Of a DNA stretch of 64,000 bases, positions 1,770-53,644 are shown in pieces. The number at the start of each line of letters is the position of its first letter. Position 1 is the first letter of the stretch. The stretch is taken from the sequence record OY720014. One strand, written 5' to 3'. The DNA is from Escherichia phage vB_Eco_QOTSP. The notes under the pieces are model-generated. The model saw nothing but the letters and a program-made list of their open reading frames with translations. It was not told the origin of the DNA and searched no databases. Position numbers and translations under genes: made by a program.

Positions 1770-2327
1770 TTATGGCCTCTCATACACGTAGCTTCTCAGT
1801 TTATTAGCCCAACGACTCCAATTTCCAACTATAGTTTTAGTATAATTTTTAACGAGAGTTTTTCTTACTAGAGCAGGAGGATCTGTCGGTTCAGTAGTAT
1901 CAGAAGATGACCTAGAATTACTACCAGAACCTCCAGATTCACTTTGTTCTTGGTAGTCATATATTAATGTTACTTCGTAAGTGAATGTCTTCTGGAGATT
2001 TTGAGGAGCTTTCCACAAATACAACTGAGTATCAGAATCAGTAGGAAGTTCTTCCCATGAAGCAGCAGTTTTAAATTCATCGCCTAAACGATATTTCAAC
2101 GCGTCATTTCCGAAACCAAATACAGATTCATATGTTCCATATAAGCGATTTTCTTCTACTAAAACCCCAGGAGTTTCTTCGTAACTAGTTATATTTATAG
2201 ATACTAACGTTTCACCTGTTTCTAATTGAGCGGTAAAGGTGACGTCGATAGAAGAACCTTCCATGGATTCTCCTAAATCAGCGCTCATTGGAAGTATATT
2301 AGCCAATGTCAATCCTCGATCCATCAA
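1770..2327 (-). CDS. 5.1: gp5.1-like protein (185 aa)
   Basis: ORF between 5 and 5.4, overlapping the gene 5 stop; synteny with T4. Confidence 0.6.
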
Positions 2328-4026: not shown

Positions 4027-4600
4027 AAGATTTCTCCATTATACGTATAAGGTCGTTCATAAATGAATTAATGTCTGATTTTGCTATTATTTTTATTTGA
4101 CGAAGTTTTTCATTTTCAAGAACAGCAGCTTCATACGTATCGACCGCAGCAAGTGCTCCTTCATATTGAGGATATTTTCTAGCTTTATCACCTTTGTCAT
4201 ACCAAACATATGGATTATCATCGTATGATATTAAATTATAAAATTTTTCACCGTTCTCATTTACATGATATACTATTTGGTCTCCACCTACGTTTTTGTA
4301 TTTTTGTATAGATGCTTGATAAGCAGCTTCTTGCGAAGTAATCCATCCATAATACGGGTCATAATTATCATTACACATCAATAAAACCCAATACAACTGT
4401 GGATTTCCATATATAGTATTTGCTAATTCTTCCGGGCGTGGTGAACCTTTAATATAATAAGTACGTAAGCGGTATCCCGCAAGAGCACGTTTGAAATAGT
4501 CTTTATAGTTTCTAAAAATATCTGTCATAGGAATAGTCGGCGCGTTTTTATTCACCGTTTTGGCCGCATATTCAATCGGATCAAAAAATGTAAAGAGCAT
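4010..4600 (-). CDS. 53: gp53 baseplate wedge protein (196 aa)
   Basis: 196 aa ORF upstream of gene 5, overlapping its start; matches T4 gp53 size and position. Confidence 0.85.
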   Translation of the reverse strand: MLFTFFDPIEYAAKTVNKNAPTIPMTDIFRNYKDYFKRALAGYRLRTYYIKGSPRPEELANTIYGNPQLYWVLLMCNDNYDPYYGWITSQEAAYQASIQKYKNVGGDQIVYHVNENGEKFYNLISYDDNPYVWYDKGDKARKYPQYEGALAAVDTYEAAVLENEKLRQIKIIAKSDINSFMNDLIRIMEKSYGNDK

Positions 4601-4613
4601 GGGCCCTCCTGTT

Positions 4614-4621
4614 TATAAATA
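4614..4621 (+). promoter_or_regulatory. late promoter TATAAATA for gene 4
   Basis: Exact TATAAATA about 27 nt upstream of the gene 4 ATG. Confidence 0.6.
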
Positions 4622-4628
4622 TATTATC

Positions 4629-4636
4629 TATTTATA
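4629..4636 (-). promoter_or_regulatory. late promoter (TATAAATA on minus strand) for gene 53
   Basis: Plus-strand TATTTATA is TATAAATA on the minus strand, about 30 nt upstream of the gene 53 start; divergent with the gene 4 promoter. Confidence 0.55.
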
Positions 4637-6610: not shown

Positions 6611-7335
6611 ATGAAACTAATCTTTTTAAGCGGTGTAAAGCGTAGTGGAAAAGATACTACTGCTGATTTTATCATGAGCAATTATTCTGCAGTTAAATAC
6701 CAACTTGCTGGTCCTATTAAGGATGCATTGGCTTATGCATGGGGCGTATTTGCAGAAAACACTGACTATCCTTGCTTAACTCGTAAAGAGTTTGAAGGAA
6801 TTGACTATGATCGTGAGACTAATTTAAATCTGACTAAATCAGAAGTAATCACGATTATGGAACAAGCATTTTGCTATCTTAACGGTAAAAGCCCAATTAA
6901 GGGTGTGTTTGTTTTTGATGACGAAGGACAAGAATCAGTTAATTCTGTAGCATTTAACAAGATTATTGACGTTATAAATAATATTGAAGATCAATGGTCA
7001 GTCCGTCGTCTGATGCAAGCCCTAGGTACGGATTTGATTGTTAATAACTTCGACCGCATGTACTGGGTAAAATTATTTGCTTTAGATTATCTTGATAAAT
7101 TTAACTCAGGTTATGATTATTATATCGTTCCTGATACTCGTCAAGATCATGAAATGGATGCGGCTAGGGCGATGGGTGCTACAGTAATTCATGTAGTTCG
7201 TCCTGGTCAAAAATCCAATGATACACATATTACAGAAGCTGGATTGCCAATTCGTGATGGCGATTTAGTAATTACAAACGATGGTTCTCTTGAAGAACTT
7301 TTTTCTAAAATTAAAAATACACTAAAGGTACTATA

Positions 7336-32656: not shown

Positions 32657-33676
32657 ATGAAAACTCGTTCTCAAATTGAAGATATGGTTCGTAATGCCAG
32701 CTATACCCGTAATGTTATGACATTTTTGTGCCAAAATAATTTAGACCCTGATAAAGTTAATCGTGATATTCACTTTAAGTATATGAATAGCAGTGAATGG
32801 TTACGTCATTTTAGTAAAGCGGGATATATTACACAAATGACTGCTCGTGAGCAGCTCACCGATTTCTGTAAAACTATTGATTATAAAAATCCTCTATTTG
32901 TTCAAGGCGTTGGTCAGAGTAAGGTTGATTTATCAACAGGATTTTTTAATCCAAATCATTATCGTCTTGAATGGAGATTTATTGCTCTATTCCGTAAACA
33001 ATTAAAGCAAATTTTGTCGACGGCTAGTCGATTAAAAGGTTCTGACATTAACTTAAAGAACCTGAAATTTGATGGTTATACTCTTCAGATGGAAGTAAGA
33101 CCATTAAAAGAAAATAATAGAACTGCACGAATTAGCTTTAAACCTAATACAAAAAATTCTCTTTCAATTTGCGAATGCCTTAAATCGCAGTTGACAGAAG
33201 CATTTAAGTATATGGATGTTGTTGCCGCTGTTCATTCTAAGATTTTACCTCGTTTTGAGCGAAATTGGGAACATACAACAACATATGAACTTGATATGAT
33301 CGTTTCATTTAAATACGATTTTTTGAGAAAGGATGAAGTCCCGCAAGAGAAAAAGCAAGAAGTGCAAGATAACTTAAATTTATCTAATTACTCATCAAAC
33401 GATCCTAAATTTTGGATGTATAGTTCAGGCAATAAAGATGCATGGAAATTCAATAAAGTGAATTTTCTTCCTATTGAAAATCCGAGTCTTAAACCTGTTG
33501 AAAAATGGCACGCGGATGCGATTGAGAAGTCTATCAAGGCAGTAGATGATGAACTCGTTAAAGCGACCAATGAAGTGCTAGAAGCTGAAAAGATGCTAGA
33601 AAAAGCTCAAGAAAAAGTCAAAAATCTCACGAAGCAACGTTCTAAACTGAACAACGCACTAAATGCACTGAACTAG
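32657..33676 (+). CDS. paralog-array member 2 with C-terminal coiled coil (339 aa)
   Basis: C-terminal ...KVKNLTKQRSKLNNALNALN heptad helix; N-terminus MKTR... similar to member 4. Confidence 0.55.
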   Translation: MKTRSQIEDMVRNASYTRNVMTFLCQNNLDPDKVNRDIHFKYMNSSEWLRHFSKAGYITQMTAREQLTDFCKTIDYKNPLFVQGVGQSKVDLSTGFFNPNHYRLEWRFIALFRKQLKQILSTASRLKGSDINLKNLKFDGYTLQMEVRPLKENNRTARISFKPNTKNSLSICECLKSQLTEAFKYMDVVAAVHSKILPRFERNWEHTTTYELDMIVSFKYDFLRKDEVPQEKKQEVQDNLNLSNYSSNDPKFWMYSSGNKDAWKFNKVNFLPIENPSLKPVEKWHADAIEKSIKAVDDELVKATNEVLEAEKMLEKAQEKVKNLTKQRSKLNNALNALN

Positions 33677-35716: not shown

Positions 35717-36102
35717 AAAAGCGTCTATTAGAAGATATTGCAGCTTCTAGTAATTCCAGTCTAATTAAAATTATTATGGCTGGTGAAGAAGACGATCTGG
35801 AAATGCGTGGAAAGATTCACGGCTGCGACGATTTAGATTTTAAACCTCCAGCATGGGATGCTATTATGGCTATGGTTGAACGACGTGAAAGAGCTTCTAA
35901 AAACGTTCCTAATTGCCCTGAATGCGGTACTGAACAAGTTCAATTGATTAACTGGCGTAAACCAGAGCTTGAATATAAATGCCGTCATTGTAAACATAAA
36001 TTTAATAAGCATGCTCCGGAAATGGTTAAATTGCCTGACTCTACTGAGTTCTTTAAAGAACTTGTGAGTGTTCAACCAATGCCTAATAATATTTTGGATT
36101 AA
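35713..36102 (+). CDS. zinc-ribbon protein (129 aa)
   Basis: CPEC...CRHC four-Cys motif; overlaps upstream stop. Confidence 0.5.
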
Positions 36103-36104
36103 AA

Positions 36105-36347
36105 ATGACCAAGCGTAAAGAATATATGGAGACTGCTAAAAAGGCAGTCCGTGAATTAGCAATAGCTTATTATAATGAACATGGTAAATTTCCTGATAGA
36201 TACAGCGTGCTTAAATCTGCTTTAACTCGTTCATATAAAAATATGCTATCAGAAGTAAGTGATATTATATACAAACATAAAGAACAAACGGGCCAAAGTC
36301 TTGATTACGACGAGACTTTTAAACAAGTACTAGGAATTAAGGAATAA
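36105..36347 (+). CDS. hypothetical small protein (80 aa)
   Basis: ORF just upstream of nrdC. Confidence 0.45.
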
Positions 36348-36348
36348 T

Positions 36349-36612
36349 ATGTTTAAAGTATATGGTTATGATAACAACATCCATAAATGTGTGTATTGCG
36401 ATAATGCAAAACGTCTTTTGACTGTGAAGAAACAGCCGTTTGAATTTATCAACATTATGCCGGAAAAAGGTGTTTTTGATGATGAGAAAATTGCTGAGCT
36501 TCTGACTAAACTGGGTCGTGATACTCAAATTGGCTTGACGATGCCTCAAGTATTTGCTCCTGATGGAAGTCATATTGGTGGATTTGACCAATTGCGGGAA
36601 TACTTTAAATGA
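36349..36612 (+). CDS. nrdC: phage thioredoxin/glutaredoxin NrdC (87 aa)
   Basis: Active-site CVYC; MFKVYGYD... matches T4 NrdC. Confidence 0.9.
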   Translation: MFKVYGYDNNIHKCVYCDNAKRLLTVKKQPFEFINIMPEKGVFDDEKIAELLTKLGRDTQIGLTMPQVFAPDGSHIGGFDQLREYFK

Positions 36613-36824
36613 TGCTCGAAGGAACTGACTATATTCATGATTACCGCGGAAGCGCGGTATATGTAGGTGATGAAGTTGCAGTTTATTATGGGTATGGAAC
36701 TTTGATGACAGCAAAGGTTATTCAAATTAAAAATAATCGTGCTAAACTTGAAGTTTATTATTCTAATGGTGAAAAGTCTATTTCTAAGTGGAAATACGGC
36801 GATTGTATGGTCAAACTGGGGTAA
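36609..36824 (+). CDS. hypothetical small protein (71 aa)
   Basis: ORF overlapping the nrdC stop. Confidence 0.45.
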   Translation: MMLEGTDYIHDYRGSAVYVGDEVAVYYGYGTLMTAKVIQIKNNRAKLEVYYSNGEKSISKWKYGDCMVKLG

Positions 36825-37119
36825 ATATGATTTACGATATTAATGTAGCAAAAGCTCCGTCAATGGTTACTATTCCTGCTGAAGAACTAGATCGTCTTCA
36901 TAAAATTGAAGAACTTCTTTGGGAAATTGAATCTGATTTGCCATCAGGATTAGAATCCTGGATTGATTATGAAGAACTTAATAAGCTTCGGGGTTAAACC
37001 TTGGTGGGCGGCTAGATGGGAAACTGTAGAGCCAGAGCCGGAAGAACCGGTTTACACTGATGAAGAAACAGTATATAATGAACCAACGATAAATGACTTA
37101 ATTGATATGGAGATGGGAC

Positions 37120-37605
37120 ATGATTACAGTAGATAAGTGGTTTAGAATTAATCGTGCTGATACAGGGCTGTGTAATTACTGGCCGGAACTTAGCGCAGGT
37201 ACTGTCTTTAAAGTTCGTGAACTTGCAAAAGAATGTGAAGATGATATAGAGCCTGATACTGGAATTATTGAAATTGAACTTTCCGACGGAAAGATTATTA
37301 ATATCTATGATAAGCCAATTACGTATTGGTGCTTGTGGAATACTGAATCAGTAGAAAATGGCGAAATTGAAGAAGTTGTAGATAGAACTAATCAAGTTGT
37401 TCAGAAGCCTAAAGCTGATTTTCAAGGTGAACGTATTTCATACGCATTAGCTAAATTAGCTGCACAAGAAAATAATGATGGCTATGAAGGAAATTTAATG
37501 CAAGCTGCCGCAGAGTACATTGAATGGCTTGAAACTCAAATTTCTTTTTCTGACCGAATGATTCAGCAATATAAGCGATTGCATCAAATGTTTTACAATA
37601 CTTGA
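37120..37605 (+). CDS. pin: Pin-like protein (host Lon protease inhibitor), 161 aa
   Basis: Internal ATG of track ORF 37102 gives 161 aa; position upstream of gene 49 as in T4. Confidence 0.6.
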   Translation: MITVDKWFRINRADTGLCNYWPELSAGTVFKVRELAKECEDDIEPDTGIIEIELSDGKIINIYDKPITYWCLWNTESVENGEIEEVVDRTNQVVQKPKADFQGERISYALAKLAAQENNDGYEGNLMQAAAEYIEWLETQISFSDRMIQQYKRLHQMFYNT

Positions 37606-37615
37606 AAATAATAAA

Positions 37616-37646
37616 TACCCTTATCTATTTAAGGTAAGGGTTTTAT
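37616..37646 (+). terminator. possible stem-loop terminator
   Basis: ACCCTTA...TAAGGGT stem followed by TTTTA. Confidence 0.35.
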
Positions 37647-37647
37647 T

Positions 37648-38121
37648 ATGTTATTGACTGGCAAATTATATAAAGAAGAAAAACAAAAATTTTATGATGC
37701 ACAAAACGGTAAATGCTTAATTTGCCAACGAGAACTAAATCCTGATGTTCAAGCTAATCACCTCGATCATGACCATGAATTAAATGGACCAAAAGCAGGA
37801 AAGGTACGTGGATTGCTTTGTAATCTCTGCAATGCTGCAGAAGGTCAAATGAAACATAAATTTAATCGCTCTGGTTTAAAGGGACAAGGCGTTGATTATC
37901 TTGAATGGTTAGAAAATTTACTTACTTATTTAAAATCCGATTACACCCAAAATAATATTCACCCTAACTTTGTTGGAGATAAATCAAAGGAATTTTCTCG
38001 TTTAGGAAAAGAGGAAATGATGGCCGAGATGCTTCAAAGAGGATTTGAATATAATGAATCTGACACCAAAACACAGTTAATAGCTTCATTTAAGAAGCAG
38101 CTTAGAAAGAGTTTAAAATGA
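37648..38121 (+). CDS. 49: endonuclease VII, Holliday-junction resolvase (157 aa)
   Basis: Zinc-binding CLICQ...CNLCN; 157 aa; matches T4 gp49. Confidence 0.9.
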   Translation: MLLTGKLYKEEKQKFYDAQNGKCLICQRELNPDVQANHLDHDHELNGPKAGKVRGLLCNLCNAAEGQMKHKFNRSGLKGQGVDYLEWLENLLTYLKSDYTQNNIHPNFVGDKSKEFSRLGKEEMMAEMLQRGFEYNESDTKTQLIASFKKQLRKSLK

Positions 38122-39935
38122 CAATTGAAAAAGAAATTGAAGGATTGATTCATAAAACTAATAAAGACCTTTTAAACGAGAATGCTAATAAAGATTCTCG
38201 TGTTTTTCCAACTCAACGGGACCTTATGGCTGGTATTGTGTCTAAACACATTGCCAAAAATATGGTCCCGTCTTTTATTATGAAAGCGCATGAAAGCGGA
38301 ATTATCCATTTCCATGATATTGATTATTCCCCTGCTCTTCCATTTACTAATTGCTGTTTAGTAGATTTAAAAGGAATGCTTGAGAACGGATTTAAGCTTG
38401 GTAATGCGCAGATTGAAACTCCTAAATCAATCGGTGTTGCTACTGCAATTATGGCACAAATTACTGCGCAAGTTGCTTCCCATCAATACGGCGGAACGAC
38501 TTTTGCTAATGTAGATAAAGTACTTTCTCCTTATGTTAAACGCACCTATGCAAAACATATTGAGGATGCAGAAAAATGGCAAATCGCTGATGCGTTGAAT
38601 TATGCTCAATCTAAAACAGAAAAAGACGTATACGATGCATTCCAAGCTTATGAATATGAAGTAAATACTCTCTTTAGTTCAAACGGGCAAACACCTTTTG
38701 TAACAATTACATTTGGTACGGGAACTGACTGGACTGAACGAATGATTCAGAAAGCAATTCTGAAAAATCGTATTAAAGGTCTCGGTCGTGATGGGATAAC
38801 TCCTATTTTTCCTAAGCTTGTTATGTTCGTCGAAGAAGGCGTTAATCTTTACAAAGACGATCCGAGCTATGATATTAAGCTGCTTGCTCTAGAGTGTGCA
38901 AGCAAAAGGATGTATCCTGATATTATTTCAGCTAAGAACAATAAAGCTATTACTGGTTCATCTGTTCCTGTTTCTCCAATGGGTTGCCGTAGTTTCTTGA
39001 GCGTATGGAAAGATTCGACTGGTAATGAAATTCTTGATGGACGTAATAATCTTGGTGTTGTAACACTGAATCTTCCTCGTATTGCATTAGATTCTTATAT
39101 TGGAACACAGTTCAATGAACAGAAATTTGTTGAATTGTTCAATGAACGAATGGATTTGTGTTTTGAAGCTTTGATGTGTAGAATTAGTTCCTTAAAAGGA
39201 GTTAAAGCGACTGTTGCTCCTATTCTTTACCAAGAAGGTGCATTTGGGGTTCGTCTTAAACCTGATGACGACATAATTGAGTTATTTAAAAACGGTAGAA
39301 GTTCAGTGTCTTTAGGATACATTGGTATTCACGAATTGAATATTCTTGTCGGTCGTGATATTGGACAAGAAATTTTAACTAAAATGAATGCCCATCTTAA
39401 ACAGTGGACTGAAAGAACCGGATTTGCTTTTAGTTTATATTCGACTCCTGCTGAAAACCTTTGTTATCGCTTCTGTAAACTTGATACAGAAAAATATGGA
39501 AGTGTAAAAGATGTTACCGATAAAGGCTGGTACACTAACAGTTTCCATGTTTCAGTAGAAGAAAATATTACTCCGTTTGAAAAGATTTCTCGTGAAGCGC
39601 CATATCATTTCATTGCGACAGGTGGTCACATTTCTTATGTTGAACTTCCTGATATGAAAAATAACCTAAAAGGTCTTGAGGCTGTATGGGATTATGCTGC
39701 ACAACATTTAGATTATTTTGGTGTTAACATGCCGGTAGATAAATGTTTTACATGCGGAAGTACCCATGAAATGACTCCTACTGAAAACGGATTTGTTTGT
39801 TCTATTTGTGGAGAAACTGATCCTAAAAAGATGAACACAATAAGAAGAACATGTGGTTATTTGGGAAATCCGAACGAACGCGGATTTAATCTCGGTAAAA
39901 ATAAAGAAATCATGCATAGGGTTAAACACCAATGA
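38118..39935 (+). CDS. nrdD: anaerobic ribonucleotide reductase NrdD (605 aa), uninterrupted
   Basis: 605 aa continuous ORF with C-terminal zinc Cys cluster and glycyl-radical region; no intron. Confidence 0.92.
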   Translation: MTIEKEIEGLIHKTNKDLLNENANKDSRVFPTQRDLMAGIVSKHIAKNMVPSFIMKAHESGIIHFHDIDYSPALPFTNCCLVDLKGMLENGFKLGNAQIETPKSIGVATAIMAQITAQVASHQYGGTTFANVDKVLSPYVKRTYAKHIEDAEKWQIADALNYAQSKTEKDVYDAFQAYEYEVNTLFSSNGQTPFVTITFGTGTDWTERMIQKAILKNRIKGLGRDGITPIFPKLVMFVEEGVNLYKDDPSYDIKLLALECASKRMYPDIISAKNNKAITGSSVPVSPMGCRSFLSVWKDSTGNEILDGRNNLGVVTLNLPRIALDSYIGTQFNEQKFVELFNERMDLCFEALMCRISSLKGVKATVAPILYQEGAFGVRLKPDDDIIELFKNGRSSVSLGYIGIHELNILVGRDIGQEILTKMNAHLKQWTERTGFAFSLYSTPAENLCYRFCKLDTEKYGSVKDVTDKGWYTNSFHVSVEENITPFEKISREAPYHFIATGGHISYVELPDMKNNLKGLEAVWDYAAQHLDYFGVNMPVDKCFTCGSTHEMTPTENGFVCSICGETDPKKMNTIRRTCGYLGNPNERGFNLGKNKEIMHRVKHQ

Positions 39936-40402
39936 ATTATGATAGATTTTATCCTTGCGATTTTGTGAATGGCCCTGGTTGCAGGGTCGTTCTTTTCGTT
40001 ACAGGTTGTTTGCATAAATGCGAAGGGTGTTATAATAAATCAACATGGAATGCTAGAAATGGTATTCCATTCACTGGTGAAACACTAGAACAATTAATTG
40101 AATGTTTGAATAATGATTATATAGAAGGATTAACTATAACTGGAGGAGACCCTCTCTATCCTGATAATCGAGATGTTATTCATTGCATTGTTCAAACAGT
40201 AAAAAATCTTTATCCCAATAAAAGCATTTGGTTGTGGACAGGATATAAATTTGAAGATATTAAACAACTAGAAATGCTTAAATATGTTGATGTTATTATT
40301 GATGGGAAGTATGATAAAAATCTTCCGACCAAAAAGCTGTGGAGAGGATCAGATAATCAGCGGCTTTGGTCAAATACCGATGGGGTGTGGAAACATGATT
40401 AA
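39932..40402 (+). CDS. nrdG: anaerobic RNR activase NrdG, radical SAM (156 aa)
   Basis: CxxxCxxC radical-SAM motif (CLHKCEGC); overlaps nrdD stop. Confidence 0.9.
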   Translation: MNYDRFYPCDFVNGPGCRVVLFVTGCLHKCEGCYNKSTWNARNGIPFTGETLEQLIECLNNDYIEGLTITGGDPLYPDNRDVIHCIVQTVKNLYPNKSIWLWTGYKFEDIKQLEMLKYVDVIIDGKYDKNLPTKKLWRGSDNQRLWSNTDGVWKHD

Positions 40403-40517
40403 ATTGAATTACATTATGGATACTATAAATGATATGATTTTTCATTTTGGTCCAGAATTTTATTCGCAGTATAGTTTAGTGCTTATCAATGCTTGGTTAA
40501 TCAATTAAGGGTAAAAT

Positions 40518-40733
40518 ATGTATAAATTTCGTAAAGGTTTAGCTGATTTTCTTACAACTGTAACATTCTTTTTGTTTATGGCAGTTGGAGCTATTTTCCT
40601 TATTCCTTTTATTGCTATATTTTTCGTGATTAGTTTGATTTCTCCAGAAAAGGGCTTATCTTCTAGTGAGTTCAATGAGCGTCTGGATAAAATTACTAAC
40701 AAGCTGAATTCTGTTCTTGATAAAAAGGCTTAA
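40518..40733 (+). CDS. small membrane protein (71 aa)
   Basis: Hydrophobic helix. Confidence 0.45.
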   Translation: MYKFRKGLADFLTTVTFFLFMAVGAIFLIPFIAIFFVISLISPEKGLSSSEFNERLDKITNKLNSVLDKKA

Positions 40734-40735
40734 TT

Positions 40736-41047
40736 ATGATTAGTTTTGAGCGGTATGTGGTAGAGAGTTGGAAGGGTTTTGATATGTTCGGTAATGACTA
40801 TTATTTTTACGAATGTAGTCTAAATCCTAGTTTTTGGGCTGGACGTGAACGAGATCTCGAAGAAATTAATGCTCGTGCCGAATTGTTAGGTGAACTGCCT
40901 ACGGTTTATTTTACCTTTGATGCATCTGGATTTGTTATCCAGGTTTATTTTCCTGAAGAAAACTCTGGTGAGGATTCTGTTAATCCTCCTTATTGGGCTT
41001 ACCAAGGAATTATTTCTCGTGGAACAAAACTCGAACTTAAAGAATAA
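40736..41047 (+). CDS. hypothetical protein (103 aa)
   Basis: ORF; its 3' half overlaps the only in-frame initiator of the nrdH frame. Confidence 0.5.
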   Translation: MISFERYVVESWKGFDMFGNDYYFYECSLNPSFWAGRERDLEEINARAELLGELPTVYFTFDASGFVIQVYFPEENSGEDSVNPPYWAYQGIISRGTKLELKE

Positions 41048-41342
41048 GATTGAAGTCTATGGAATTCCAGATGAAGTAGGTCGTTGTCCTGGATGTCAAT
41101 CAGTTACAAAACTTCTAAAGGAGCTCAATGCTCCTTTTACTTTCTATAAAGTTCTTACTAATAATGGTAAGATTGAGTACGATCGCCCATTGATTGTATC
41201 TCTTGCCAAACGCGCCGGATTCACATCTCTTAATATTCGGTATCCTGTCATTTTCATTAATGATTCTAGACAAAAGAACATTAAACACTTCAAAGAAACT
41301 CTCATTTCACTTGGATATGATAGAGATATCATAGAAGATTAA
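40890..41342 (+). CDS. nrdH: glutaredoxin-like NrdH; conserved domain begins near 41046, start codon unclear
   Basis: Conserved KIEVYGIPDEVGRCPGCQS (CPGC active site) has no ATG/GTG/TTG just upstream; frame open back to GTG at 40890. Confidence 0.6.
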   Translation: MNCLRFILPLMHLDLLSRFIFLKKTLVRILLILLIGLTKELFLVEQNSNLKNKIEVYGIPDEVGRCPGCQSVTKLLKELNAPFTFYKVLTNNGKIEYDRPLIVSLAKRAGFTSLNIRYPVIFINDSRQKNIKHFKETLISLGYDRDIIED

Positions 41343-41344
41343 GA

Positions 41345-41368
41345 CGGGCCCTCTGGGCCTTTCTTTCT
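41345..41368 (+). terminator. probable terminator hairpin
   Basis: GGCCC TCT GGGCC stem-loop followed by TTTCTTTCT. Confidence 0.45.
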
Positions 41369-41440
41369 CGCATTCTGTATATTACCATTCTAAGCTATCG
41401 TTCCTTTCTTATCATTCCCTAAAATATTTTTCACAAAGTT

Positions 41441-41472
41441 GTTTACAACAAGTTCAAACCGTGGTATTATTA
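41441..41472 (+). promoter_or_regulatory. early promoter with UP-like element
   Basis: TTTTTCACAAAGTTGTTTACA...TATTAT. Confidence 0.55.
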
Positions 41473-41676
41473 ACATATGAATTACCTTTGAGGAATTGAT
41501 ATGGTTGTGGTTGATAAAGAAATTAAAAAGGGGGCAGTATTATCTCATTAATGGTAATGCTGTTCGTGTTACTCATGTAAATAGTTTTGAAGTTTGCTAT
41601 ATTATACTCAAGTTACATAAACGCATGATTTGCGATCGTGCTGCATTTAGTTCAGTTGCTAAGGAAATTAAACTCC

Positions 41677-41970
41677 ATGGGTAAAACGTATCGTCGTAAA
41701 GATTTAAAAGTACGTGATTATGACTATTTCGGAAAGCGTAAAGCTCCTGATGGGGTAAGTCATAAAGATATGGTTGAAAACATTTTTCGCTCAGATAAAT
41801 GGCGTAGAATGAAAGGTATTGATTCAGAAGTTAAAGATGAGCTAAATCGCCAATTACGTGGTGAAGTAAGAAAGTTGAAAAAATCAGTTTACATTGACGA
41901 TGATTTTGATTATAATACTTCTCAACGAGTTGCTAAACGTAAATCAAACGAGTGTTATCGTTACAGCTGA
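41677..41970 (+). CDS. basic small protein (97 aa)
   Basis: ATG after AAGGAAATTAAACTCC; Arg/Lys-rich. Confidence 0.45.
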   Translation: MGKTYRRKDLKVRDYDYFGKRKAPDGVSHKDMVENIFRSDKWRRMKGIDSEVKDELNRQLRGEVRKLKKSVYIDDDFDYNTSQRVAKRKSNECYRYS

Positions 41971-42109
41971 GGAAATTATGAATATCAAACGAATGCTTTT
42001 TAAGCAGGGGTTATACACTTTAAATGTTACTCCAAAAGGTGATACAACTAAGTGGTCAGTAAATGACTGGATTAAATTTATTGATGAAAACGGTAACTGG
42101 AAAATTTAA

Positions 42110-42310
42110 ATGAATCCTGAATCTAAATTATCACAACGAATTGCCGAATCTCGTCGTCAGTTCTTTGAAAATATGATAGCCCAAGGTATTGATGATGAAG
42201 TTTTTCTAAACTGGTTTTGGAATCACAAATATTCAAGTTGCTCAGGAGCAATATTAATATCAGCCGCAATGATGTATGAAGGCTGGAAGGGTGCCAAAAA
42301 GTTTAGCTAA
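42110..42310 (+). CDS. hypothetical small protein (66 aa)
   Basis: ORF followed by terminator. Confidence 0.45.
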   Translation: MNPESKLSQRIAESRRQFFENMIAQGIDDEVFLNWFWNHKYSSCSGAILISAAMMYEGWKGAKKFS

Positions 42311-42328
42311 GGGCTTCGGCCCTTTTTG
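42310..42328 (+). terminator. rho-independent terminator
   Basis: GGGCTTCGGCCC hairpin plus TTTTT. Confidence 0.65.
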
Positions 42329-42362
42329 GATAATAAAATTTTAACGTAATTGAGGATAATGT

Positions 42363-42689
42363 ATGACTATTCAAATTAAAAACGCCATCAATTCTTACGC
42401 ATATGATAAAGTAGTTTCTTTGTTAGAAAAAGGCGATATTGTAACTCCTCAAATTTTGGATAAATGGGAAAAAGAGCTTCATCAGACGATGAAACAGAAT
42501 GATCAGAAGATTGGACGTAATACTGTCCGTGAATTGCTGGTTCAATATATCTTGTCGGAATTTGATGTTAAAGCTTTTGGCGTAGAATCTAAAGCTTATC
42601 AAAAGCATGAAATTTCCGATAAAACTATTCGTCGCATGAAAAATCAACGCAAGAAAAAATTTGCAGACCTGAAAATTGCTAAGGTATGA
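42363..42689 (+). CDS. hypothetical protein (108 aa)
   Basis: ORF after GAGGATAATGTATG. Confidence 0.45.
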   Translation: MTIQIKNAINSYAYDKVVSLLEKGDIVTPQILDKWEKELHQTMKQNDQKIGRNTVRELLVQYILSEFDVKAFGVESKAYQKHEISDKTIRRMKNQRKKKFADLKIAKV

Positions 42690-42907
42690 ATATGAACGAA
42701 GCTCTTATTAACGATTTGCGTCTTTCCGGATATGAAGTAAATACAAATGGCATTGGTTTAACTCAAATTGAAGGAAACGGATTCATCCTTGAGTATGAAT
42801 TTAGCCAATGGTGGTTATATGCCAATTACGGCGAATTGATTGAATATGTTGATCAATTTGATTCACTAGATGCAGCTCTTGAAGCGGCTAAGTTGATGAA
42901 TGTATGA
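42686..42907 (+). CDS. hypothetical protein (73 aa)
   Basis: Overlapping start/stop. Confidence 0.45.
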   Translation: MNMNEALINDLRLSGYEVNTNGIGLTQIEGNGFILEYEFSQWWLYANYGELIEYVDQFDSLDAALEAAKLMNV

Positions 42908-43173
42908 AATTTATTAATATTTCTATTACTATTGAAAATTATGGCATTTTCTATGTTGACCAATACATGAAAATTTCATTTTTCCCAAATAAGACTGGTG
43001 TTGGATATTGGGAAAGTCATGTTTCTGAATTAAATGAAAGTGAATATGCTAGCACACATGAAAAGTTTTTAGACTTTTTATATCATGCTGATTTAACTAG
43101 TCATTATATAGATATTCATGAATTTAAAAAGATGATGGAGAAAGTGTTCCAAGCATACTGTTTACTTAGATAA
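42904..43173 (+). CDS. hypothetical protein (89 aa)
   Basis: Overlapping start/stop. Confidence 0.45.
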   Translation: MKFINISITIENYGIFYVDQYMKISFFPNKTGVGYWESHVSELNESEYASTHEKFLDFLYHADLTSHYIDIHEFKKMMEKVFQAYCLLR

Positions 43174-43253
43174 CTGATTCATCCTCTATGCTTTAAGATA
43201 GATCTTCAAATATTATGATATAATAGATCTATGAATTGAGCTAAGAGGTGAAA

Positions 43254-43811
43254 ATGTCAGAAACTAAGCCTAAATATAATTACGTAAACAATAAAGAGCT
43301 TTTACAAGCTATTATTGATTGGAAAACAGAATTAGCAAATAATAAAGACCCAAATAAAGTAGTTCGTCAGAATGATACTATCGGATTAGCCATTATGCTT
43401 ATTGCAGAAGGCTTATCTAAACGTTTCAACTTTTCAGGATACACCCAGTCTTGGAAACAAGAAATGATTGCAGATGGTATAGAAGCTTCTATTAAGGGGC
43501 TTCATAATTTTGATGAAACGAAATATAAAAACCCACATGCGTATATAACTCAAGCTTGTTTTAATGCATTCGTCCAACGTATTAAAAAAGAACGTAAGGA
43601 AGTTGCAAAGAAATATAGTTACTTCGTTCACAATGTCTATGACAGCCGTGACGACGATATGGTTGCGTTAGTAGATGAAACTTTTATTCAAGACATCTAC
43701 GATAAAATGACGCATTACGAAGAATCAACCTATAGAACACCGGGGGCTGAAAAGAAAAGTGTTGTAGACGATTCTCCTAGTTTGGATTTTTTATATGAGG
43801 CTAACGATTAA
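43254..43811 (+). CDS. 55: gp55 late-transcription sigma factor (185 aa)
   Basis: [24 protein letters not shown]...; 185 aa from ATG after GAGGTGAAA. Confidence 0.9.
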
Positions 43812-44013
43812 CCTCTCCGGATTCTTGGAAGAAATACCTGAAGTTGAAGCTATTCCCTATTTACTTAAAATGTATCTCAGGGAAGTTTTAGCTCTTGACA
43901 TTGATATTGATCCAGAAAATCCGTATGATACCGCTTTTAAATCTAATGGTGTAGAATTAAATTACAGGTATCATTTAACAGATGATGATTTTTATTTTAT
44001 ATTAGAGAAATAA
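43795..44013 (+). CDS. hypothetical small protein (72 aa)
   Basis: ORF overlapping gene 55 end. Confidence 0.4.
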
Positions 44014-44014
44014 T

Positions 44015-44332
44015 ATGACTGATAAACCCGAAATTAATGATGAAGTGGAAAAGCTTATTTCTTCTATTGAAGAAAAGAACCGTCTTGAAGCAGAAAGAAA
44101 AGCAAATAAGTTATTGTCTAAAAACAAACGCGAACTGAATCGTCTTTATAAGCACGCTCAGATCGCAGCTGAAAACAATAATTTTGCTCAATACGAATAT
44201 GCTATCAAGAAAAGTCGGGATATTCTAAAACAGCCATATAACGATGAACTCATCAGTATTCTTTGGAAGACTACTAGATCGCAAATTGAGGATATGATTG
44301 ATGCTTACACACGTAAAATTCAAGCGTCTTAA
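44015..44332 (+). CDS. hypothetical coiled-coil protein (105 aa)
   Basis: ORF 1 nt after previous stop. Confidence 0.45.
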   Translation: MTDKPEINDEVEKLISSIEEKNRLEAERKANKLLSKNKRELNRLYKHAQIAAENNNFAQYEYAIKKSRDILKQPYNDELISILWKTTRSQIEDMIDAYTRKIQAS

Positions 44333-44504
44333 AATTAATGCAGGATTTACTGAATCTTTGAATGGTCATCTTTGTGTGAAAATTTCTGAAAAAGAATACC
44401 ATGATAGTTCAATTAAAGAAGTTAATCCTCCTATTGTAAGAGCAGACCCTAATATGAAAGTGTGGGTTGATTCTTATCAAGTCAAAAAATGGTGGCAGTT
44501 ATGA
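44298..44504 (+). CDS. hypothetical small protein (68 aa)
   Basis: Overlapping ORF. Confidence 0.4.
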   Translation: MMLTHVKFKRLKINAGFTESLNGHLCVKISEKEYHDSSIKEVNPPIVRADPNMKVWVDSYQVKKWWQL

Positions 44505-44677
44505 AAGATGAACACCCAGACTTCTGAAATAGATTATAATAAAATTCGTTCCTCTAAAGAGGAAATGATGAGACTCTTTAAAGCGTCTCATGATAAAGCT
44601 AAAGCAGAAGGAACTATAAAATATAAGCGCATAAAATTTAAAAGTTCTAACGAGCCTCTGTATGGCGTATTATGTGG

Positions 44678-44705
44678 ATAGGAGCTTCGGCTCCTATATT
44701 GCTTT
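44678..44705 (+). terminator. UUCG-tetraloop hairpin, possible terminator
   Basis: ATAGGAGCTTCGGCTCCTAT. Confidence 0.45.
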
Positions 44706-44747
44706 ATAAATTTTTGGTAAAATAAACCAAAACAAAGAGGATATTAA

Positions 44748-45950
44748 ATGAAAGTATGTATTTTTATGGCTCGAGGTCTTGAAGGTTGTGGTGTAACTAA
44801 ATTTTCTCTTGAGCAACGTGATTGGTTTATTAAGAATGGTCATGAAGTAACTTTGGTTTATGCTAAAGATAAATCATTTACTCGTAATTGCGCGCATGAT
44901 TATAAATCATTTTCAATTCCGGTTTTATTGGCAAAAGAATATGATAAAACACTTAAGCTGGTAAATGATTGTGATATTCTAATTATCAATTCAGTTCCTG
45001 CTACTTCGGTTGAAGAAGACACTATTAATAACTATAAAAAAATTATTGATAACATTAAACCTTCTGTTCGTGTTGTAGTTTATCAACATGACCATTCTTC
45101 TCTTTCTTTGCGCCGAAATTTGGGATTAGAAGAAACTGTTCGTCGAGCTGATGTTATTTTTAGCCATTCTGATAATGGTGATTTTAATAAAGTTCTGATG
45201 AAAGAATGGTATCCTGAAACAGTTTCTCTGTTTGATGATATTGAAGAAGCACCGACAGTATATAACTTTCAGCCTCCTATGGATATTGCGAAGGTTCGGT
45301 CAACCTACTGGAAAGATGTTTCTGAAATTAACATGAATATCAATCGTTGGATTGGTCGTACGACTACATGGAAAGGTTTTTATCAGATGTTTGATTTTCA
45401 TGAAAAACATCTTAAACCTGCAGGACTAAGTACTATTATGGAAGGTCTGGAACGTTCTCCAGCGTTCATTCCTATTAAAGAAAAAGGAATTCCATACGAG
45501 TATTATCGTCTTCATCAAGTAGACCAAATTAAAATTGCTCCTAATTTGCCAACGCAAATTCTTGACCGTTATGTAAATAGCGAAATGCTTGAACGTATGA
45601 GTAAATCCGGATTTGGTTATCAGTTGAGTAAGTTGGATAAAAAATATCTACAGCGCTCTTTAGAATATACTCATCTCGAGCTTGGTGCATGTGGAACAAT
45701 TCCGGTATTTTGGAAATCTACTGGCGAAAATTTAAAATTCCGTGTTGATAATACTCCTTTGACCTCGCATGATAGCGGTATCATTTGGTTTGATGAAAAT
45801 GATATGGAATCAACATTTGAACGTATTAAAGAACTGTCATCTGACCGAGCTCTTTATGACCGTGAGCGTGAAAAAGCATATGAATTTTTGTATCAGCATC
45901 AAGATTCAAGCTTCTGCTTTAAAGAACAGTTTGACATTATTACAAAATAA
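44748..45950 (+). CDS. agt: DNA alpha-glucosyltransferase (400 aa)
   Basis: 400 aa; MKVCIFMARGLEGCGVTKFSLEQRDWFIKNGHEVTLVYAKDK... close to T4 alpha-gt. Confidence 0.92.
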   Translation: MKVCIFMARGLEGCGVTKFSLEQRDWFIKNGHEVTLVYAKDKSFTRNCAHDYKSFSIPVLLAKEYDKTLKLVNDCDILIINSVPATSVEEDTINNYKKIIDNIKPSVRVVVYQHDHSSLSLRRNLGLEETVRRADVIFSHSDNGDFNKVLMKEWYPETVSLFDDIEEAPTVYNFQPPMDIAKVRSTYWKDVSEINMNINRWIGRTTTWKGFYQMFDFHEKHLKPAGLSTIMEGLERSPAFIPIKEKGIPYEYYRLHQVDQIKIAPNLPTQILDRYVNSEMLERMSKSGFGYQLSKLDKKYLQRSLEYTHLELGACGTIPVFWKSTGENLKFRVDNTPLTSHDSGIIWFDENDMESTFERIKELSSDRALYDREREKAYEFLYQHQDSSFCFKEQFDIITK

Positions 45951-47406: not shown

Positions 47407-47593
47407 CATTAATGATGAATTCATAGCAAATATTGATTATATCGAAGAAGATTCTAGATATGTTGGAATAATTTACATTACATCAAAAACAGCACAAGGC
47501 GTTGTTTGCATGGCTGAATTTGACGAATACTTTTTAGATTATGATGATATGATAGAATGGTCTAAAAGATACATTAAAAGGAATCTTTTGTGA
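47378..47593 (+). CDS. hypothetical small protein (start uncertain: ATG 47378 or GTG 47387)
   Basis: In-frame starts with AAGGA RBS; overlaps upstream ORF end. Confidence 0.4.
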   Translation: MHTVKFSTFDINDEFIANIDYIEEDSRYVGIIYITSKTAQGVVCMAEFDEYFLDYDDMIEWSKRYIKRNLL

Positions 47594-49278
47594 AGAATTT
47601 TAAACTAAATCGAGTTAGGTATCAAAATATAATGTCAGTAGGTGGAAATCCTATTGACATTCAATTAGATAAGGTTCAAAAAACTCTTATTACTGGACGA
47701 AATGGCGGTGGTAAGTCTACTATGTTAGAAGCCATCACATTTGGGCTTTTTGGCAAGCCATTCCGTGATGTAAAGAAAGGTCAATTAATAAACAGCACAA
47801 ATAAGAAAGAACTTTTAGTTGAACTGTGGATGGAATATGATGAGAAAAAGTACTATATCAAAAGAGGACAAAAACCAAACGTTTTCGAAATCACCGTTAA
47901 CGGTACACGTCTTAATGAATCTGCCAGCAGTAAAGATTTCCAAGCAGAATTTGAACAGCTTATCGGAATGTCATATGCCAGTTTCAAGCAGATTGTTGTC
48001 CTTGGTACAGCAGGGTATACCCCTTTCATGGGTTTGTCGACCCCTGCGCGAAGAAAGCTCGTGGAAGACCTGCTCGAGGTAGGAACATTAGCTGAAATGG
48101 ATAAGCTTAATAAAGCACTAATACGTGAATTAAATTCACAAAACCAAGTGCTTGATGTTAAAAAAGATAGTATTATCCAACAAATTAAAATATATAATGA
48201 TAACGTTGAACGCCAGAAAAAATTAACGGGTGACAACCTTACTCGTCTTCAAAATATGTATGATGATTTGGCAAAAGAAGCTAGAACGCTAAAATCGGAA
48301 ATAGAAGAAGCTAATGAAAGATTAGTTAATATTGTTTTAGATGAAGACCCGACTGATGCATTTAATAAAATCGGTCAAGAAGCAGTTTTAATTAAATCAA
48401 AAATTGACTCGTATAATAAAGTCATTAATATGTATCACGAAGGTGGATTATGTCCAACCTGCTTGTCACAATTAAGTTCCGGTGATAAAGTTGTTTCTAA
48501 AATTAAAGATAAAGTTTCTGAATGTACGCATTCGTTTGAACAGCTTTCAACACATCGTGATAATTTAAAAGTTCTTGTTGATGAATACCGAGATAATATT
48601 AAAACCCAGCAGTCGTTGGCAAATGATATTCGCAATAAAAAGCAATCTCTAATCACGACGGTAGATAAAGCTAAAAAAGTTAAAGCAGCTATAGAAAAAG
48701 CATCTTCTGAGTTTATTGACCATGCTGATGAAATAGCACTGCTTCAAGAAGAACTTGATAAAATTGTTAAGACAAAAACTAATTTAGTAATGGAAAAATA
48801 CCACCGAGGAATTTTGACTGATATGCTCAAAGATTCTGGTATTAAAGGTGCTATTATTAAAAAGTACATTCCATTATTTAATAAGCAGATTAACCATTAT
48901 CTTAAAATAATGGAAGCGGATTATGTGTTTACATTAGATGAAGAATTTAATGAGACAATTAAATCCCGTGGTCGTGAAGATTTTAGTTATGCTTCATTCA
49001 GTCAAGGTGAAAAAGCGCGAATTGATATTGCTCTTTTATTTACTTGGCGTGATATTGCTGAAAAAGTTTCAGGTGTTAAAATAAGTTGTTTATTTCTTGA
49101 TGAAGTGTATGACGGTGCATTTGATGCTGAAGGTATTAAAAATGTAGCTAAAATTTTAGATGGTTTGAAGGATACCAACTTCTTCATAATTTCACATAAA
49201 GACCATGACCCACAAGAATATGGTCAGCATATTCAGATGGAAAAAGTTGGTAGATTTAGTTTAGCTAAGATTAGCTAA
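47590..49278 (+). CDS. 46: gp46 recombination ATPase subunit (Rad50/SbcC-like), 562 aa
   Basis: Walker A GRNGGGKST, central coiled coil with CPTC zinc hook, C-terminal signature/Walker B; GTG start. Confidence 0.92.
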   Translation: MKNFKLNRVRYQNIMSVGGNPIDIQLDKVQKTLITGRNGGGKSTMLEAITFGLFGKPFRDVKKGQLINSTNKKELLVELWMEYDEKKYYIKRGQKPNVFEITVNGTRLNESASSKDFQAEFEQLIGMSYASFKQIVVLGTAGYTPFMGLSTPARRKLVEDLLEVGTLAEMDKLNKALIRELNSQNQVLDVKKDSIIQQIKIYNDNVERQKKLTGDNLTRLQNMYDDLAKEARTLKSEIEEANERLVNIVLDEDPTDAFNKIGQEAVLIKSKIDSYNKVINMYHEGGLCPTCLSQLSSGDKVVSKIKDKVSECTHSFEQLSTHRDNLKVLVDEYRDNIKTQQSLANDIRNKKQSLITTVDKAKKVKAAIEKASSEFIDHADEIALLQEELDKIVKTKTNLVMEKYHRGILTDMLKDSGIKGAIIKKYIPLFNKQINHYLKIMEADYVFTLDEEFNETIKSRGREDFSYASFSQGEKARIDIALLFTWRDIAEKVSGVKISCLFLDEVYDGAFDAEGIKNVAKILDGLKDTNFFIISHKDHDPQEYGQHIQMEKVGRFSLAKIS

Positions 49279-49987
49279 GTTTATATTTACAGTTATCATT
49301 ATGCCATCTTGATAAATTTCCGAAAGTGGTAACTTTACCACAATGGACGCAAGTACCAGTCTTTTCAGTTTTCTTGCGTCCATTTGGATTTTTCTTGCAG
49401 AAATTTCTATGCGCTGCGATAACGCATTTCTTGCCTATCATTCCGCAGAATTCGCAGGATGTTTCTTCAAGAACGATTGCTTTAAGCCCGTTTGAGATAT
49501 TATTTCTGTGTTCTTTAGACATTGGTGGTCTAACTTTAGGATTAGGGTGATTTGGGCAGTTATCAAAATGCCAACGATTCATATTCCCGCTTAATCCAGA
49601 CTTACCGCAATGAGGACAAGTTAGTCTTGCTTTATTAGCTACTGCATCAGACATTTTCTTTCGTGTCTCCTGGGAGAATTCTTTATTCTTTTCTATTTCC
49701 CAGAGTTTACGACGAATCCAACCGAAAGTTTTATTGTTGCGTTTAGCGTATTTCGTAGAAACTGTCATCATGTTAGCAGCATAGACTAATTTTGGTTCAG
49801 AAGGATAAATTTTTACTAAAAGTTGATGAGCTACATAGTGCTCTTCTGGTGTTAAATCTACTAAGTTTGAAGCATCATCGCTGCCATTTAAACAGCGTGG
49901 TATAATGTGATGAGATTCAGTATAACAATCAAGTTTTCGAGATTTAGCATTAGAGATTAACTTTTCATAAATTAGTTTATAATTCAT
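49271..49987 (-). mobile_element. free-standing HNH homing endonuclease with three Cys2-His-Cys repeats (238 aa)
   Basis: HNH motif ESHHIIPRCLNGSDDASNLVDLTPEEHYVAH; three C-x2-C...RWH-x-DNC-like repeats; opposite strand to all neighbours; 3' end overlaps gene 46 stop. Confidence 0.8.
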
Positions 49988-50020
49988 AACATATCCTTTT
50001 GATACAGCGAGTGATAAACA

Positions 50021-50028
50021 TATTTATA
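50021..50028 (-). promoter_or_regulatory. late promoter (TATAAATA on minus strand) for the HNH gene
   Basis: Plus-strand TATTTATA about 30 nt upstream of the minus-strand ATG. Confidence 0.5.
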
Positions 50029-50038
50029 CGGAGGAACT

Positions 50039-50230
50039 GTGGCAGAATATTCAACTGGACAGCATCTATTAACTATTCCTGAAATAAAACGATATATTCT
50101 GAGAAATAATTTTTCTAATGAAGAGCATATAGTTACTGAATCTATGCTTAGGAATGCATTTAAATCAGAATATACAAAAATAATGTCCAATAGAAATGAA
50201 GCTTGGACTGTTACTGATTATTATGACTAA
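50039..50230 (+). CDS. small protein 45.2-like (63 aa)
   Basis: GTG start after GGAGGA RBS. Confidence 0.45.
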   Translation: MAEYSTGQHLLTIPEIKRYILRNNFSNEEHIVTESMLRNAFKSEYTKIMSNRNEAWTVTDYYD

Positions 50231-50239
50231 AGGTGTATT

Positions 50240-50629
50240 ATGACTAAAATTACTGTGAATTATACTGTTGATGTAAAAGATATTCAGCCAAAACACGTGC
50301 GTTCTGAATCAAATCCACAAAACCAAAATAAAATTCGTCGAGCATGGGTTTTGTCTCTTTCTGATAACGCAATGGAAGTTATTCAGAACAAAATTAAATC
50401 TGCACCTGCTCGTCATGCGTATTATGAAGCTATCGATCGTGAAGTAAGTAATAAATGGATTGAACTAATGCGCAAACATACTACAGAATCCCTAAACGCC
50501 GGTGCTAAATTTATTATGACTTCATGTGGTGAACGTCTTGAAGATGATTATTGCGGTAATGCAGATGAACGTCTAATTGTTGCTGCTCAAATTGTTGCCG
50601 AAACAATCGCAGCTGATTTTAATCGTTAA
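50240..50629 (+). CDS. rpbA: RpbA RNA-polymerase-binding protein (129 aa)
   Basis: 129 aa ORF immediately upstream of gene 45. Confidence 0.75.
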
Positions 50630-53317: not shown

Positions 53318-53327
53318 GGTAAATTAT

Positions 53328-53564
53328 ATGACACAATCAGAGATTCAGTTTACCGAAGCTTTTCTAATATTCGAAAATCTAAAACAAACATATGGTCTGT
53401 CTTCTACCCAACTGGTTTTTGACCTCCCGGAAGATAAACAAATAGAATTCCAAAAAGAATTCCAACGATTAGTTTACCCACGCCAACGCGCATTTCATGC
53501 GATTATCAAAACCACAAATACAGATGGCAAGTCCGTTATATCGCGTCGTACAATAGAAATTTAA
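53328..53564 (+). CDS. hypothetical small protein (78 aa)
   Basis: ATG after AAGGTAAATTAT; lies between regA and gene 43. Confidence 0.4.
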   Translation: MTQSEIQFTEAFLIFENLKQTYGLSSTQLVFDLPEDKQIEFQKEFQRLVYPRQRAFHAIIKTTNTDGKSVISRRTIEI

Positions 53565-53569
53565 AGCAA

Positions 53570-53592
53570 AGGGGCTTCGGCCCCTTATTTGG
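53570..53592 (+). terminator. rho-independent terminator
   Basis: AGGGGCTTCGGCCCCT hairpin plus TATTTGG. Confidence 0.6.
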
Positions 53593-53644
53593 AGTATAAT
53601 ATATCAAGAGCCTAATAACTCGGGCTATAAACTAAGGAATATCT

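Follow-up and report, generated by a model that had tools for sequence, protein, structure and literature searches.

Free-standing homing endonuclease genes of the Mob family (MobA-E), of which MobE is the characterised member, are inserted between conserved genes in T4, and all T4 homing endonuclease genes other than segD are co-oriented with their neighbours (PMC2988022). The other close comparison is I-TevIII of phage RB3, encoded in an intron of nrdB, which joins an N-terminal HNH domain (H26/H27...N...H) to C-terminal tandem CX2CX12-13HX3C fingers. Its residues H26, H27, N39 and H48 are catalytic, alanine mutants at these positions losing cleavage; its fingers hold about one zinc each, are required for DNA binding and reduce both binding and cleavage when mutated; and the enzyme acts as a dimer, its double-strand break leaving 2-nt 3' overhangs (PMC1865063). 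Here we describe a gene that resembles both, lying antisense between genes 46 and 45.2 of Escherichia phage vB_Eco_QOTSP (OY720014), a T4-type phage of the genus Tequatrovirus, from which a stretch of 64,000 nt was analysed (hereafter the window). We think it quite probable that the gene encodes a free-standing homing endonuclease, is intact and spreads by copying itself into the 46/45.2 junction of gene-free relatives.

The 238-amino-acid product, read on the minus strand from an ATG at 49987 to a stop codon at 49271-49273, matches the PHROG 655 family (‘homing endonuclease’) from end to end (E = 7.5e-69), and a search with the regular expression C-x2-C-x11/12-H-x3-C locates three CCHC motifs. 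A first-pass annotation, made from the letters alone, had described the protein as an HNH nuclease followed by three C-x2-C...H-x3-C repeats, and this description holds. It had also proposed a BLASTP comparison with the Mob enzymes, which finds the first ~110 residues similar to T4 MobB (44% over 126 amino acids, E = 6e-30), MobD (53% over 75 amino acids, E = 9e-24) and MobC (37%, E = 9e-23), and to RB3 MobE (36%, E = 2e-23). The Mob family shares with the window protein an N-terminal domain of the form MNYxxIY...HHIIPxCxGGxDDxxNLVxLTxEEHxxAHxLLxKI. BLAST found no C-terminal similarity to these four proteins, and T4 MobB, MobC and MobD, unlike the window protein, lack CCHC fingers by the same regular expression.

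Within the Mob-like head, the segment quoted in the first-pass annotation (ESHHIIPRCLNGSDDASNLVDLTPEEHYVAH) is residues 24-54, with the layout E24-x-H26-H27...N41-L...E49-H50-x3-H54. A database search finds ~2300 relatives, and 42 of these, when aligned, show no variation at E24, H26, H27, N41, H50 or H54. A structure model of the full protein (mean predicted local distance difference test score, pLDDT, 91.4) places a strand at 24-27, a second strand at 42-45 and a helix at 47-60 around the motif, while a PDB sequence search returned no match below E = 0.17. H26, H27, N41 and H50 line up by inspection with H26, H27, N39 and H48 of I-TevIII, but BLAST does not align the two HNH domains and gives the N-terminus no significant match to I-TevIII, whose HNH is of a different subtype. 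Assignment to the HNH homing-endonuclease family, with a T4 Mob-type head, is supported by these comparisons, and the protein is predicted to be a nuclease.

The remainder of the protein differs from the Mob enzymes. Residues 103-115 form a NUMOD3-like helix at the spot where most family members have NUMOD3 repeats and homologues carry PF07460; across the 42 aligned relatives the middle of the protein holds either NUMOD3 repeats or additional fingers. Residues 174-238 align with residues 207-268 of I-TevIII (36% over 67 amino acids, pairwise E = 5e-8), CKxNPN linker included, with finger 2 falling on I-TevIII finger 1 (C211/C214) and finger 3 on I-TevIII finger 2 (C242/C245). Finger 1 is 50% identical to I-TevIII finger 2 over 28 amino acids. 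By this alignment fingers 2 and 3 are homologous to the two fingers of I-TevIII and finger 1 is a further copy, giving three rather than two; a tail of this I-TevIII type is not unusual. The finger 3 ligands C213, C216, H229 and C233 are invariant in the 42 homologues, and the finger is present in every member examined. The structure model contains three hairpin-plus-helix modules, among them 121-132 with 133-143 for finger 1 (pLDDT >90) and 175-186 with 187-199 for finger 2. Ligand conservation and the modelled modules suggest that the fingers bind zinc.

The gene is not new, and it is an ordinary one, present in about one in nine T4-type phages. It was annotated in RB32 in 2006 as RB32ORF054w, a ‘putative site-specific intron-like DNA endonuclease / similar to mobB’; the RB51 record cites it under that name, and most of the 58 records that carry it label it a homing endonuclease. 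A 2010 survey of T4-related genomes tallied two mob-like HNH genes for RB32 (PMC2993671), one of which is presumably RB32ORF054w. The window gene is 99.3% identical to the RB32 coding sequence, and RB32ORF054w and its orthologues in RB51, RB68 and RB33 (97-99% at the nucleotide level) share its site, orientation and overlap with gene 46, although RB51-type copies differ in the last two codons and overlap gene 46 by 4 bp (TTAA) instead of 8 bp. What is added here is incremental: the chimeric Mob/I-TevIII architecture, a linked tract of gene 46 together with a recombinant, conservation of the promoter, and a displaced putative middle promoter.

The distribution of the gene is sporadic but its site is fixed. 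T4 has no homing endonuclease here, in line with the first-pass annotation, and has instead a spacer of 55 bp between 46 and 45.2. The 1.9-kb locus of the window matched 590 records in the phage collection, 503 of them at ≥90% identity, with full coverage in just 59. The endonuclease gene itself occurs in 58 records, always at the 46/45.2 site and 96.9-100% identical; it is thus carried by 58 of ~503 Tequatrovirus records with the locus and absent from ~89%. Carriers include RB32, RB33, RB51 and RB68, and the host names in carrier records are Escherichia, Shigella, Salmonella, Serratia and even Pseudomonas. An IMG/VR search with RpbA yielded six loci, none with the endonuclease gene, which served as controls. 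More distant copies (68-72% nucleotide identity) are found at this site in Bp7 (Dhakavirus), FL31 (Mosigvirus) and Roth04 (an unclassified Klebsiella phage), where they too lie antisense and either abut or overlap the gene 46 end; within Mosigvirus 14 of ~156 records have a copy. Since such ~70%-identical copies share the site in three other groups, the association of element and site must be old. The suggestion of a recent mobile insertion therefore stands as to mobility, given the patchy occurrence, while ‘recent’ can be meant only in a relative sense; and the comparison of the interval across records finds the gene in a minority, not as a conserved resident of all relatives.

FL31 and the gene-free Mosigvirus KAW3E185 are 96-100% identical in the flanks, with a precise junction after ...GATTTACTGTAATG. 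The T4 and KAW3E185 spacers, at 54-55 bp, contain no remnant of the gene and share a left block, CATCTTCAAATGA..AAAGTTGG.CGATTTAC.GTAATG, and a right block, ATGGAG.A.AACATGGA.TATTCAACTGG; these conserved blocks are natural candidates for the recognition site. As judged from these comparisons, the gene is distributed as a homing element would be whose target is conserved.

Among Tequatroviruses the gene is inherited together with a diverged 3' end of gene 46. In a sliding comparison of the window with T4 and five IMG/VR contigs, all six of them Tequatroviruses that lack the gene, identity is 97-100% for most 100-bp segments of gene 46 up to ~49000, then falls to 80-92% at 49000-49100, to 64-78% at 49100-49200 and to ~57% over the last 80 bp of the gene, before returning to ~99% from the start of 45.2 onward. 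RB32 and RB51 have the window's version of this tail. In the database the 231-271-bp tract exists in two states, with 59 records at ≥95% identity, none at 90-95% and 458 at 80-90%, and 58 of the 59 records with the carrier-type tract are exactly those with the endonuclease gene. The exception is vB-Eco-KMB22 (positions 1460-1830 of its extracted locus, L016, corresponding to window 49000-49278), which has the carrier-type tract to ~49237 and thereafter the T4-type last ~40 bp of gene 46 and a T4-type empty spacer, and is therefore a natural recombinant. Co-inheritance with the flanking marker is seen in population data, with 58 of 59 linked and one recombinant.

The tract codes for the Walker B, D-loop, H-loop and C-terminus of gp46, with the key motifs kept despite ~20 amino-acid changes, and the last codons come from the inserted DNA, so that gp46 ends in ...GRFSLAKIS in the window and in ...GRFTVMV in T4. 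It reads as a fossil co-conversion tract: the element would have entered Tequatrovirus once, together with the donor's gene 46 end, and have spread since as a unit of ~1 kb. At window 49085-49200 the gene-free Tequatroviruses themselves have two gene 46 alleles (a T4 type and an L007/L011 type), so that mosaicism at the 3' end of gene 46 does not depend on the element.

The first-pass annotation had also proposed a late-type promoter, and the octamer TATAAATA is indeed present, 33 nt upstream of the ATG. The same order of TATAAATA, a leader with TTTATC..GCTGTATCA and a Shine-Dalgarno sequence precedes the ATG in Roth04, Bp7 and FL31, and promoter and leader are thus conserved in four genera although the proteins are only 57-64% identical. 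This conserved position makes TATAAATA credible as a late promoter, and we infer that the endonuclease gene is transcribed late from a promoter of its own. In this the gene differs from the T4 endonuclease genes, being antisense to its neighbours with its own late promoter. The segD gene of T4 also encodes a free-standing endonuclease and also runs counter to the genes around it, but it is of the GIY-YIG type, lacks any promoter that can be identified as its own and is believed to be expressed hardly at all (PMC2988022), unlike the window gene with its conserved late promoter.

The leader (window 49988-50020, minus strand; loci L003, L004 and L005) has kept its motif across four genera. A hairpin sequestering the ribosome-binding site, as in mobE and I-TevI, was considered and rejected, RNAalifold predicting zero pairs on the four leaders. 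An operator in the style of I-TevI was likewise rejected: in local alignment the promoter and leader share with the T4 empty site just the Shine-Dalgarno sequence of 45.2, and 628 of 1000 shuffles align as well. Elsewhere in the window, both strands carry TATAAATA at 4614-4636, with 8 bp between the copies, where a minus-strand block (1770-4600) gives way to a plus-strand block; this looks like a pair of divergent late promoters.

The insertion also appears to displace a promoter. In T4 the 46/45.2 spacer contains TGCTTTAATTTATTAGAGTATAAT, of the form TGCTTTA-11 nt-TATAAT, which by pattern match fits the MotA-dependent middle-promoter consensus upstream of 45.2 (positions ~7263-7288 of the extracted T4 locus, L002; record ~33262-33287). 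This motif has no counterpart in the window, where the insertion has replaced it. T4 and the window both retain a matching MotA-type motif in front of gene 45 (window 50631), and in FL31 a motif of the MotA type is still present between 45.2 and the promoter of the element. One pattern match inside the insert, at 49478 with a 13-nt spacer, was considered as a replacement promoter and given no weight.

We propose that late in infection the gene would be transcribed from its TATAAATA promoter, against the direction of the early and middle genes around it, to give a protein with a Mob-type HNH head and a tail of one NUMOD3-like helix and three I-TevIII-type Cys2-His-Cys fingers. In co-infection with a gene-free relative, the tail would bind a long site at or near the gene 46/45.2 junction, which is suspected to take in the final ~40 bp of gene 46 together with the spacer next to it, and the HNH head would cut there. 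The break would be resected and repaired by the phage recombination machinery with the carrier genome as template, and the gene and neighbouring sequence would be copied in. Carriers would be immune because the insertion splits the site and, in Tequatrovirus, because the diverged 3' end of gene 46 alters the site too; the lasting linkage of tract and gene may mean that the tract is needed for this immunity. The element may still be moving in this way.

Several points weigh against homing as the explanation. The protein scores 16.9 bits (E = 0.0071) with the Pfam HNH model (PF01844), below the cut-off of 21.4 bits; this model covers the Mob subtype poorly, and some homologues do carry PF01844. 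In the literature we found no paper that names RB32ORF054w or a homing endonuclease at 46/45.2, and none with an experimental test. The linked gene 46 tract is absent in Mosigvirus (FL31 compared with KAW3E185), and because the junction there is clean the tract is not needed in principle, insertion alone being able to destroy the site; its persistence in Tequatrovirus may instead reflect poor recombination within 60-80%-identical DNA rather than target immunity. The octamer TATAAATA is no rarer in the window than chance would have it (13 copies observed, 10.4 expected), and in DNA this rich in A and T it is uninformative on its own. No terminator-like site was found in a scan of 48800-50400, so that late transcription would continue into gene 46 in the antisense direction. 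Lastly, the endonuclease gene has diverged between genera to an extent (68-72% nucleotide identity) comparable with gene 46 (75-78%), which would also suit long vertical residence with repeated loss.

That last account, in which the gene was resident at 46/45.2 in the common ancestor of the genera, has in its favour the identical site and orientation in four genera as well. We nonetheless judge it quite improbable, since the empty sites of T4 and KAW3E185 are so compact and free of remnants, the T4 spacer holds a MotA-type middle-promoter motif, and the Tequatrovirus copies, at least 96.9% identical, share one foreign-looking gene 46 tail in backbones otherwise 97-100% like those of gene-free phages. 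Near-identical copies with a shared tail in such backbones fit horizontal spread better than ~450 independent clean deletions.

Two further alternatives hold that the gene is no longer a homing element. The endonuclease protein is under purifying selection, with a ratio of non-synonymous to synonymous substitution (dN/dS) of 0.08-0.19, including the unsaturated pair of window and RB51 (dS 0.105, dN 0.009), and the open reading frame (ORF) is full length in 58 of 58 Tequatrovirus carrier records, with catalytic and zinc-ligand residues all intact. Many phage homing endonuclease genes are defunct, and the gene could in principle be a decaying, pseudogene-like relic, as is the truncated I-TevIII of T4; against intact frames, intact residues and a dN/dS of ~0.1, we regard this as very improbable. 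The same ratio tells us no more than that something profits from the protein, and it would also suit a nuclease or DNA-binding protein that no longer homes and has been retained for the benefit of the phage, for instance by cutting co-infecting competitors without copying itself, or by acting as a late repressor at 46/45.2 in the manner of I-TevI at its own promoter. I-TevI does act as an autorepressor besides (PMC2988022), and the conserved leader could be accommodated here. A general benefit sits poorly, however, with absence from most Tequatrovirus records; the promoter and leader do not resemble the empty site, the Shine-Dalgarno sequence apart; and a fixed site, clean empty sites and a linked flank are classic marks of homing. 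We consider such domestication unlikely, and retain homing as the preferred explanation.

A more far-reaching proposal about the consequences of homing seems to us doubtful. To be immune, the element would have to carry its own version of the final ~75 gene 46 codons, which cover Walker B, the D-loop, the H-loop and the C-terminus, so that homing would rewrite part of the gp46 ATPase; the late promoter would send antisense RNA through 46 and 47; the middle promoter of 45.2/rpbA would be removed; and carriers would thus differ in recombination and in 45.2/rpbA expression. Both gp46 and gp47 are listed as possible exonucleases in T4 homing (PMC2988022). That the element lies beside a gene that may act on the breaks of the element itself, and alters the end of this gene, is no more than a curiosity.

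Features of the endonuclease locus in the window, with positions in the 64,000-nt stretch
Feature	Position	Strand	Basis or remark
Free-standing homing endonuclease gene (probable)	49271..49987	-	ORF listing and sequence; orthologue of RB32ORF054w
Mob-type HNH nuclease domain, N-terminal, residues 1-100	49688..49987	-	BLASTP, conservation
HNH core E24, H26, H27, N41, H50, H54	49826-49918	-	
NUMOD3-like helix, residues 103-115	49643..49681	-	Pfam NUMOD3, sub-threshold, E = 0.13
Predicted zinc finger 1, C124-x2-C127-x12-H140-x3-C144	49556..49618	-	Residues 124-144, CPHCGKSGLSGNMNRWHFDNC
Predicted zinc finger 2, C178-x2-C181-x11-H193-x3-C197	49397..49456	-	Residues 178-197, CEFCGMIGKKCVIAAHRNFC
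Predicted zinc finger 3, C213-x2-C216-x12-H229-x3-C233	49289..49351	-	Residues 213-233, CVHCGKVTTFGNLSRWHNDNC
Shine-Dalgarno AAGGA, 6 nt before ATG	49994..49998	-	Sequence; kept in homologues
T4 late-promoter motif TATAAATA	50021..50028	-	Sequence and conservation; putative function
Palindrome TTAGCTAA with stop codons of both convergent genes	49271..49278	.	8-bp overlap
Diverged gene 46 3' end (Walker B to gp46 C-terminus), inherited with endonuclease gene	49060..49278	+	~220 bp; 57-82% identical to phages without the endonuclease gene
DNA without T4 counterpart	49264..50029	.	~766 bp in place of ~53 bp of T4 (alignment)
Gene 46 (SbcC/Rad50-like recombination nuclease subunit), left neighbour	47590..49278	+	
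Gene 45.2, right neighbour	50039..50230	+	PHROG 1045, E = 1.2e-32

The plus-strand gene order around the insertion is 47 - 46.2 - 46.1 - 46 - (endonuclease gene, antisense) - 45.2 - rpbA - 45 - 44 - 62 - regA - 43. The first-pass annotation had put the gene at 49271-50030 between 46 and rpbA. The start of that range is correct, but the ORF ends at 49987 and the upper bound takes in the promoter; likewise the gene does adjoin 46, but its right neighbour is 45.2, with rpbA (50240-50629) beyond it. An overlap with the stop codon of gene 46 had been noted too, and measures 8 bp: TTAGCTAA is its own reverse complement and supplies ‘AGC TAA’ to gene 46 and to the endonuclease ORF alike. Gene 45.2 starts with GTG (MAEYS...) in the window and with ATG (MEYS...) in T4. 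Among the minus-strand ORFs of at least 110 amino acids between 4.6 and 64 kb, the endonuclease gene alone has family support, which bears out the earlier view that it is the only sizeable minus-strand gene of the block; the other four have TTG or GTG starts and lie opposite plus-strand ORFs, and neither of the two tested has a PHROG match, while the plus-strand partner tested for one of them does.

Other observations concern neighbouring loci and relatives. In Bp7 (L004, 803-2303), gene 46 is annotated as two coding sequences (803-2041 and 2121-2303) beside that phage's endonuclease copy, which may reflect a frameshift, sequencing error or damage. Between regA and gene 43 the window has ~330 bp (53318-53644), compared with ~78 bp in T4; alignment to T4 and most other loci collapses across this interval, and RB32 has a ‘43.1-like’ small ORF annotated at the corresponding place. 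T4 mobB, mobC, mobD and I-TevII (of the nrdD intron) were not found in the window, tblastn with these proteins matching only the gene at 49271-49987. Within 36000-45000 the window's nrdD (38118-39935) is uninterrupted and abuts nrdG (39932-40402); a-gt lies at 44748-45950.

For the field these findings change little, as they concern one more uncharacterised Mob-like gene that annotators had already labelled correctly. Their modest value is that nature supplies here a clean example for which the material to compare is unusually good. Empty sites number in the hundreds, filled ones are known from 58 Tequatrovirus records and also from Mosigvirus, Dhakavirus and a Klebsiella phage, and there are in addition one natural recombinant and a two-state flanking allele of gene 46. 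Because this material is so good, the target site and co-conversion could be mapped with very little work, and KMB22 would serve well as a substrate in locating the target. At this locus an endonuclease gene appears to have coped with being placed antisense by means of its own conserved late promoter, a minor variation on known arrangements. Its protein is an example of module shuffling, with a Mob head joined to I-TevIII-type fingers in a family in which ~2300 relatives carry one to three fingers or NUMOD3 repeats.

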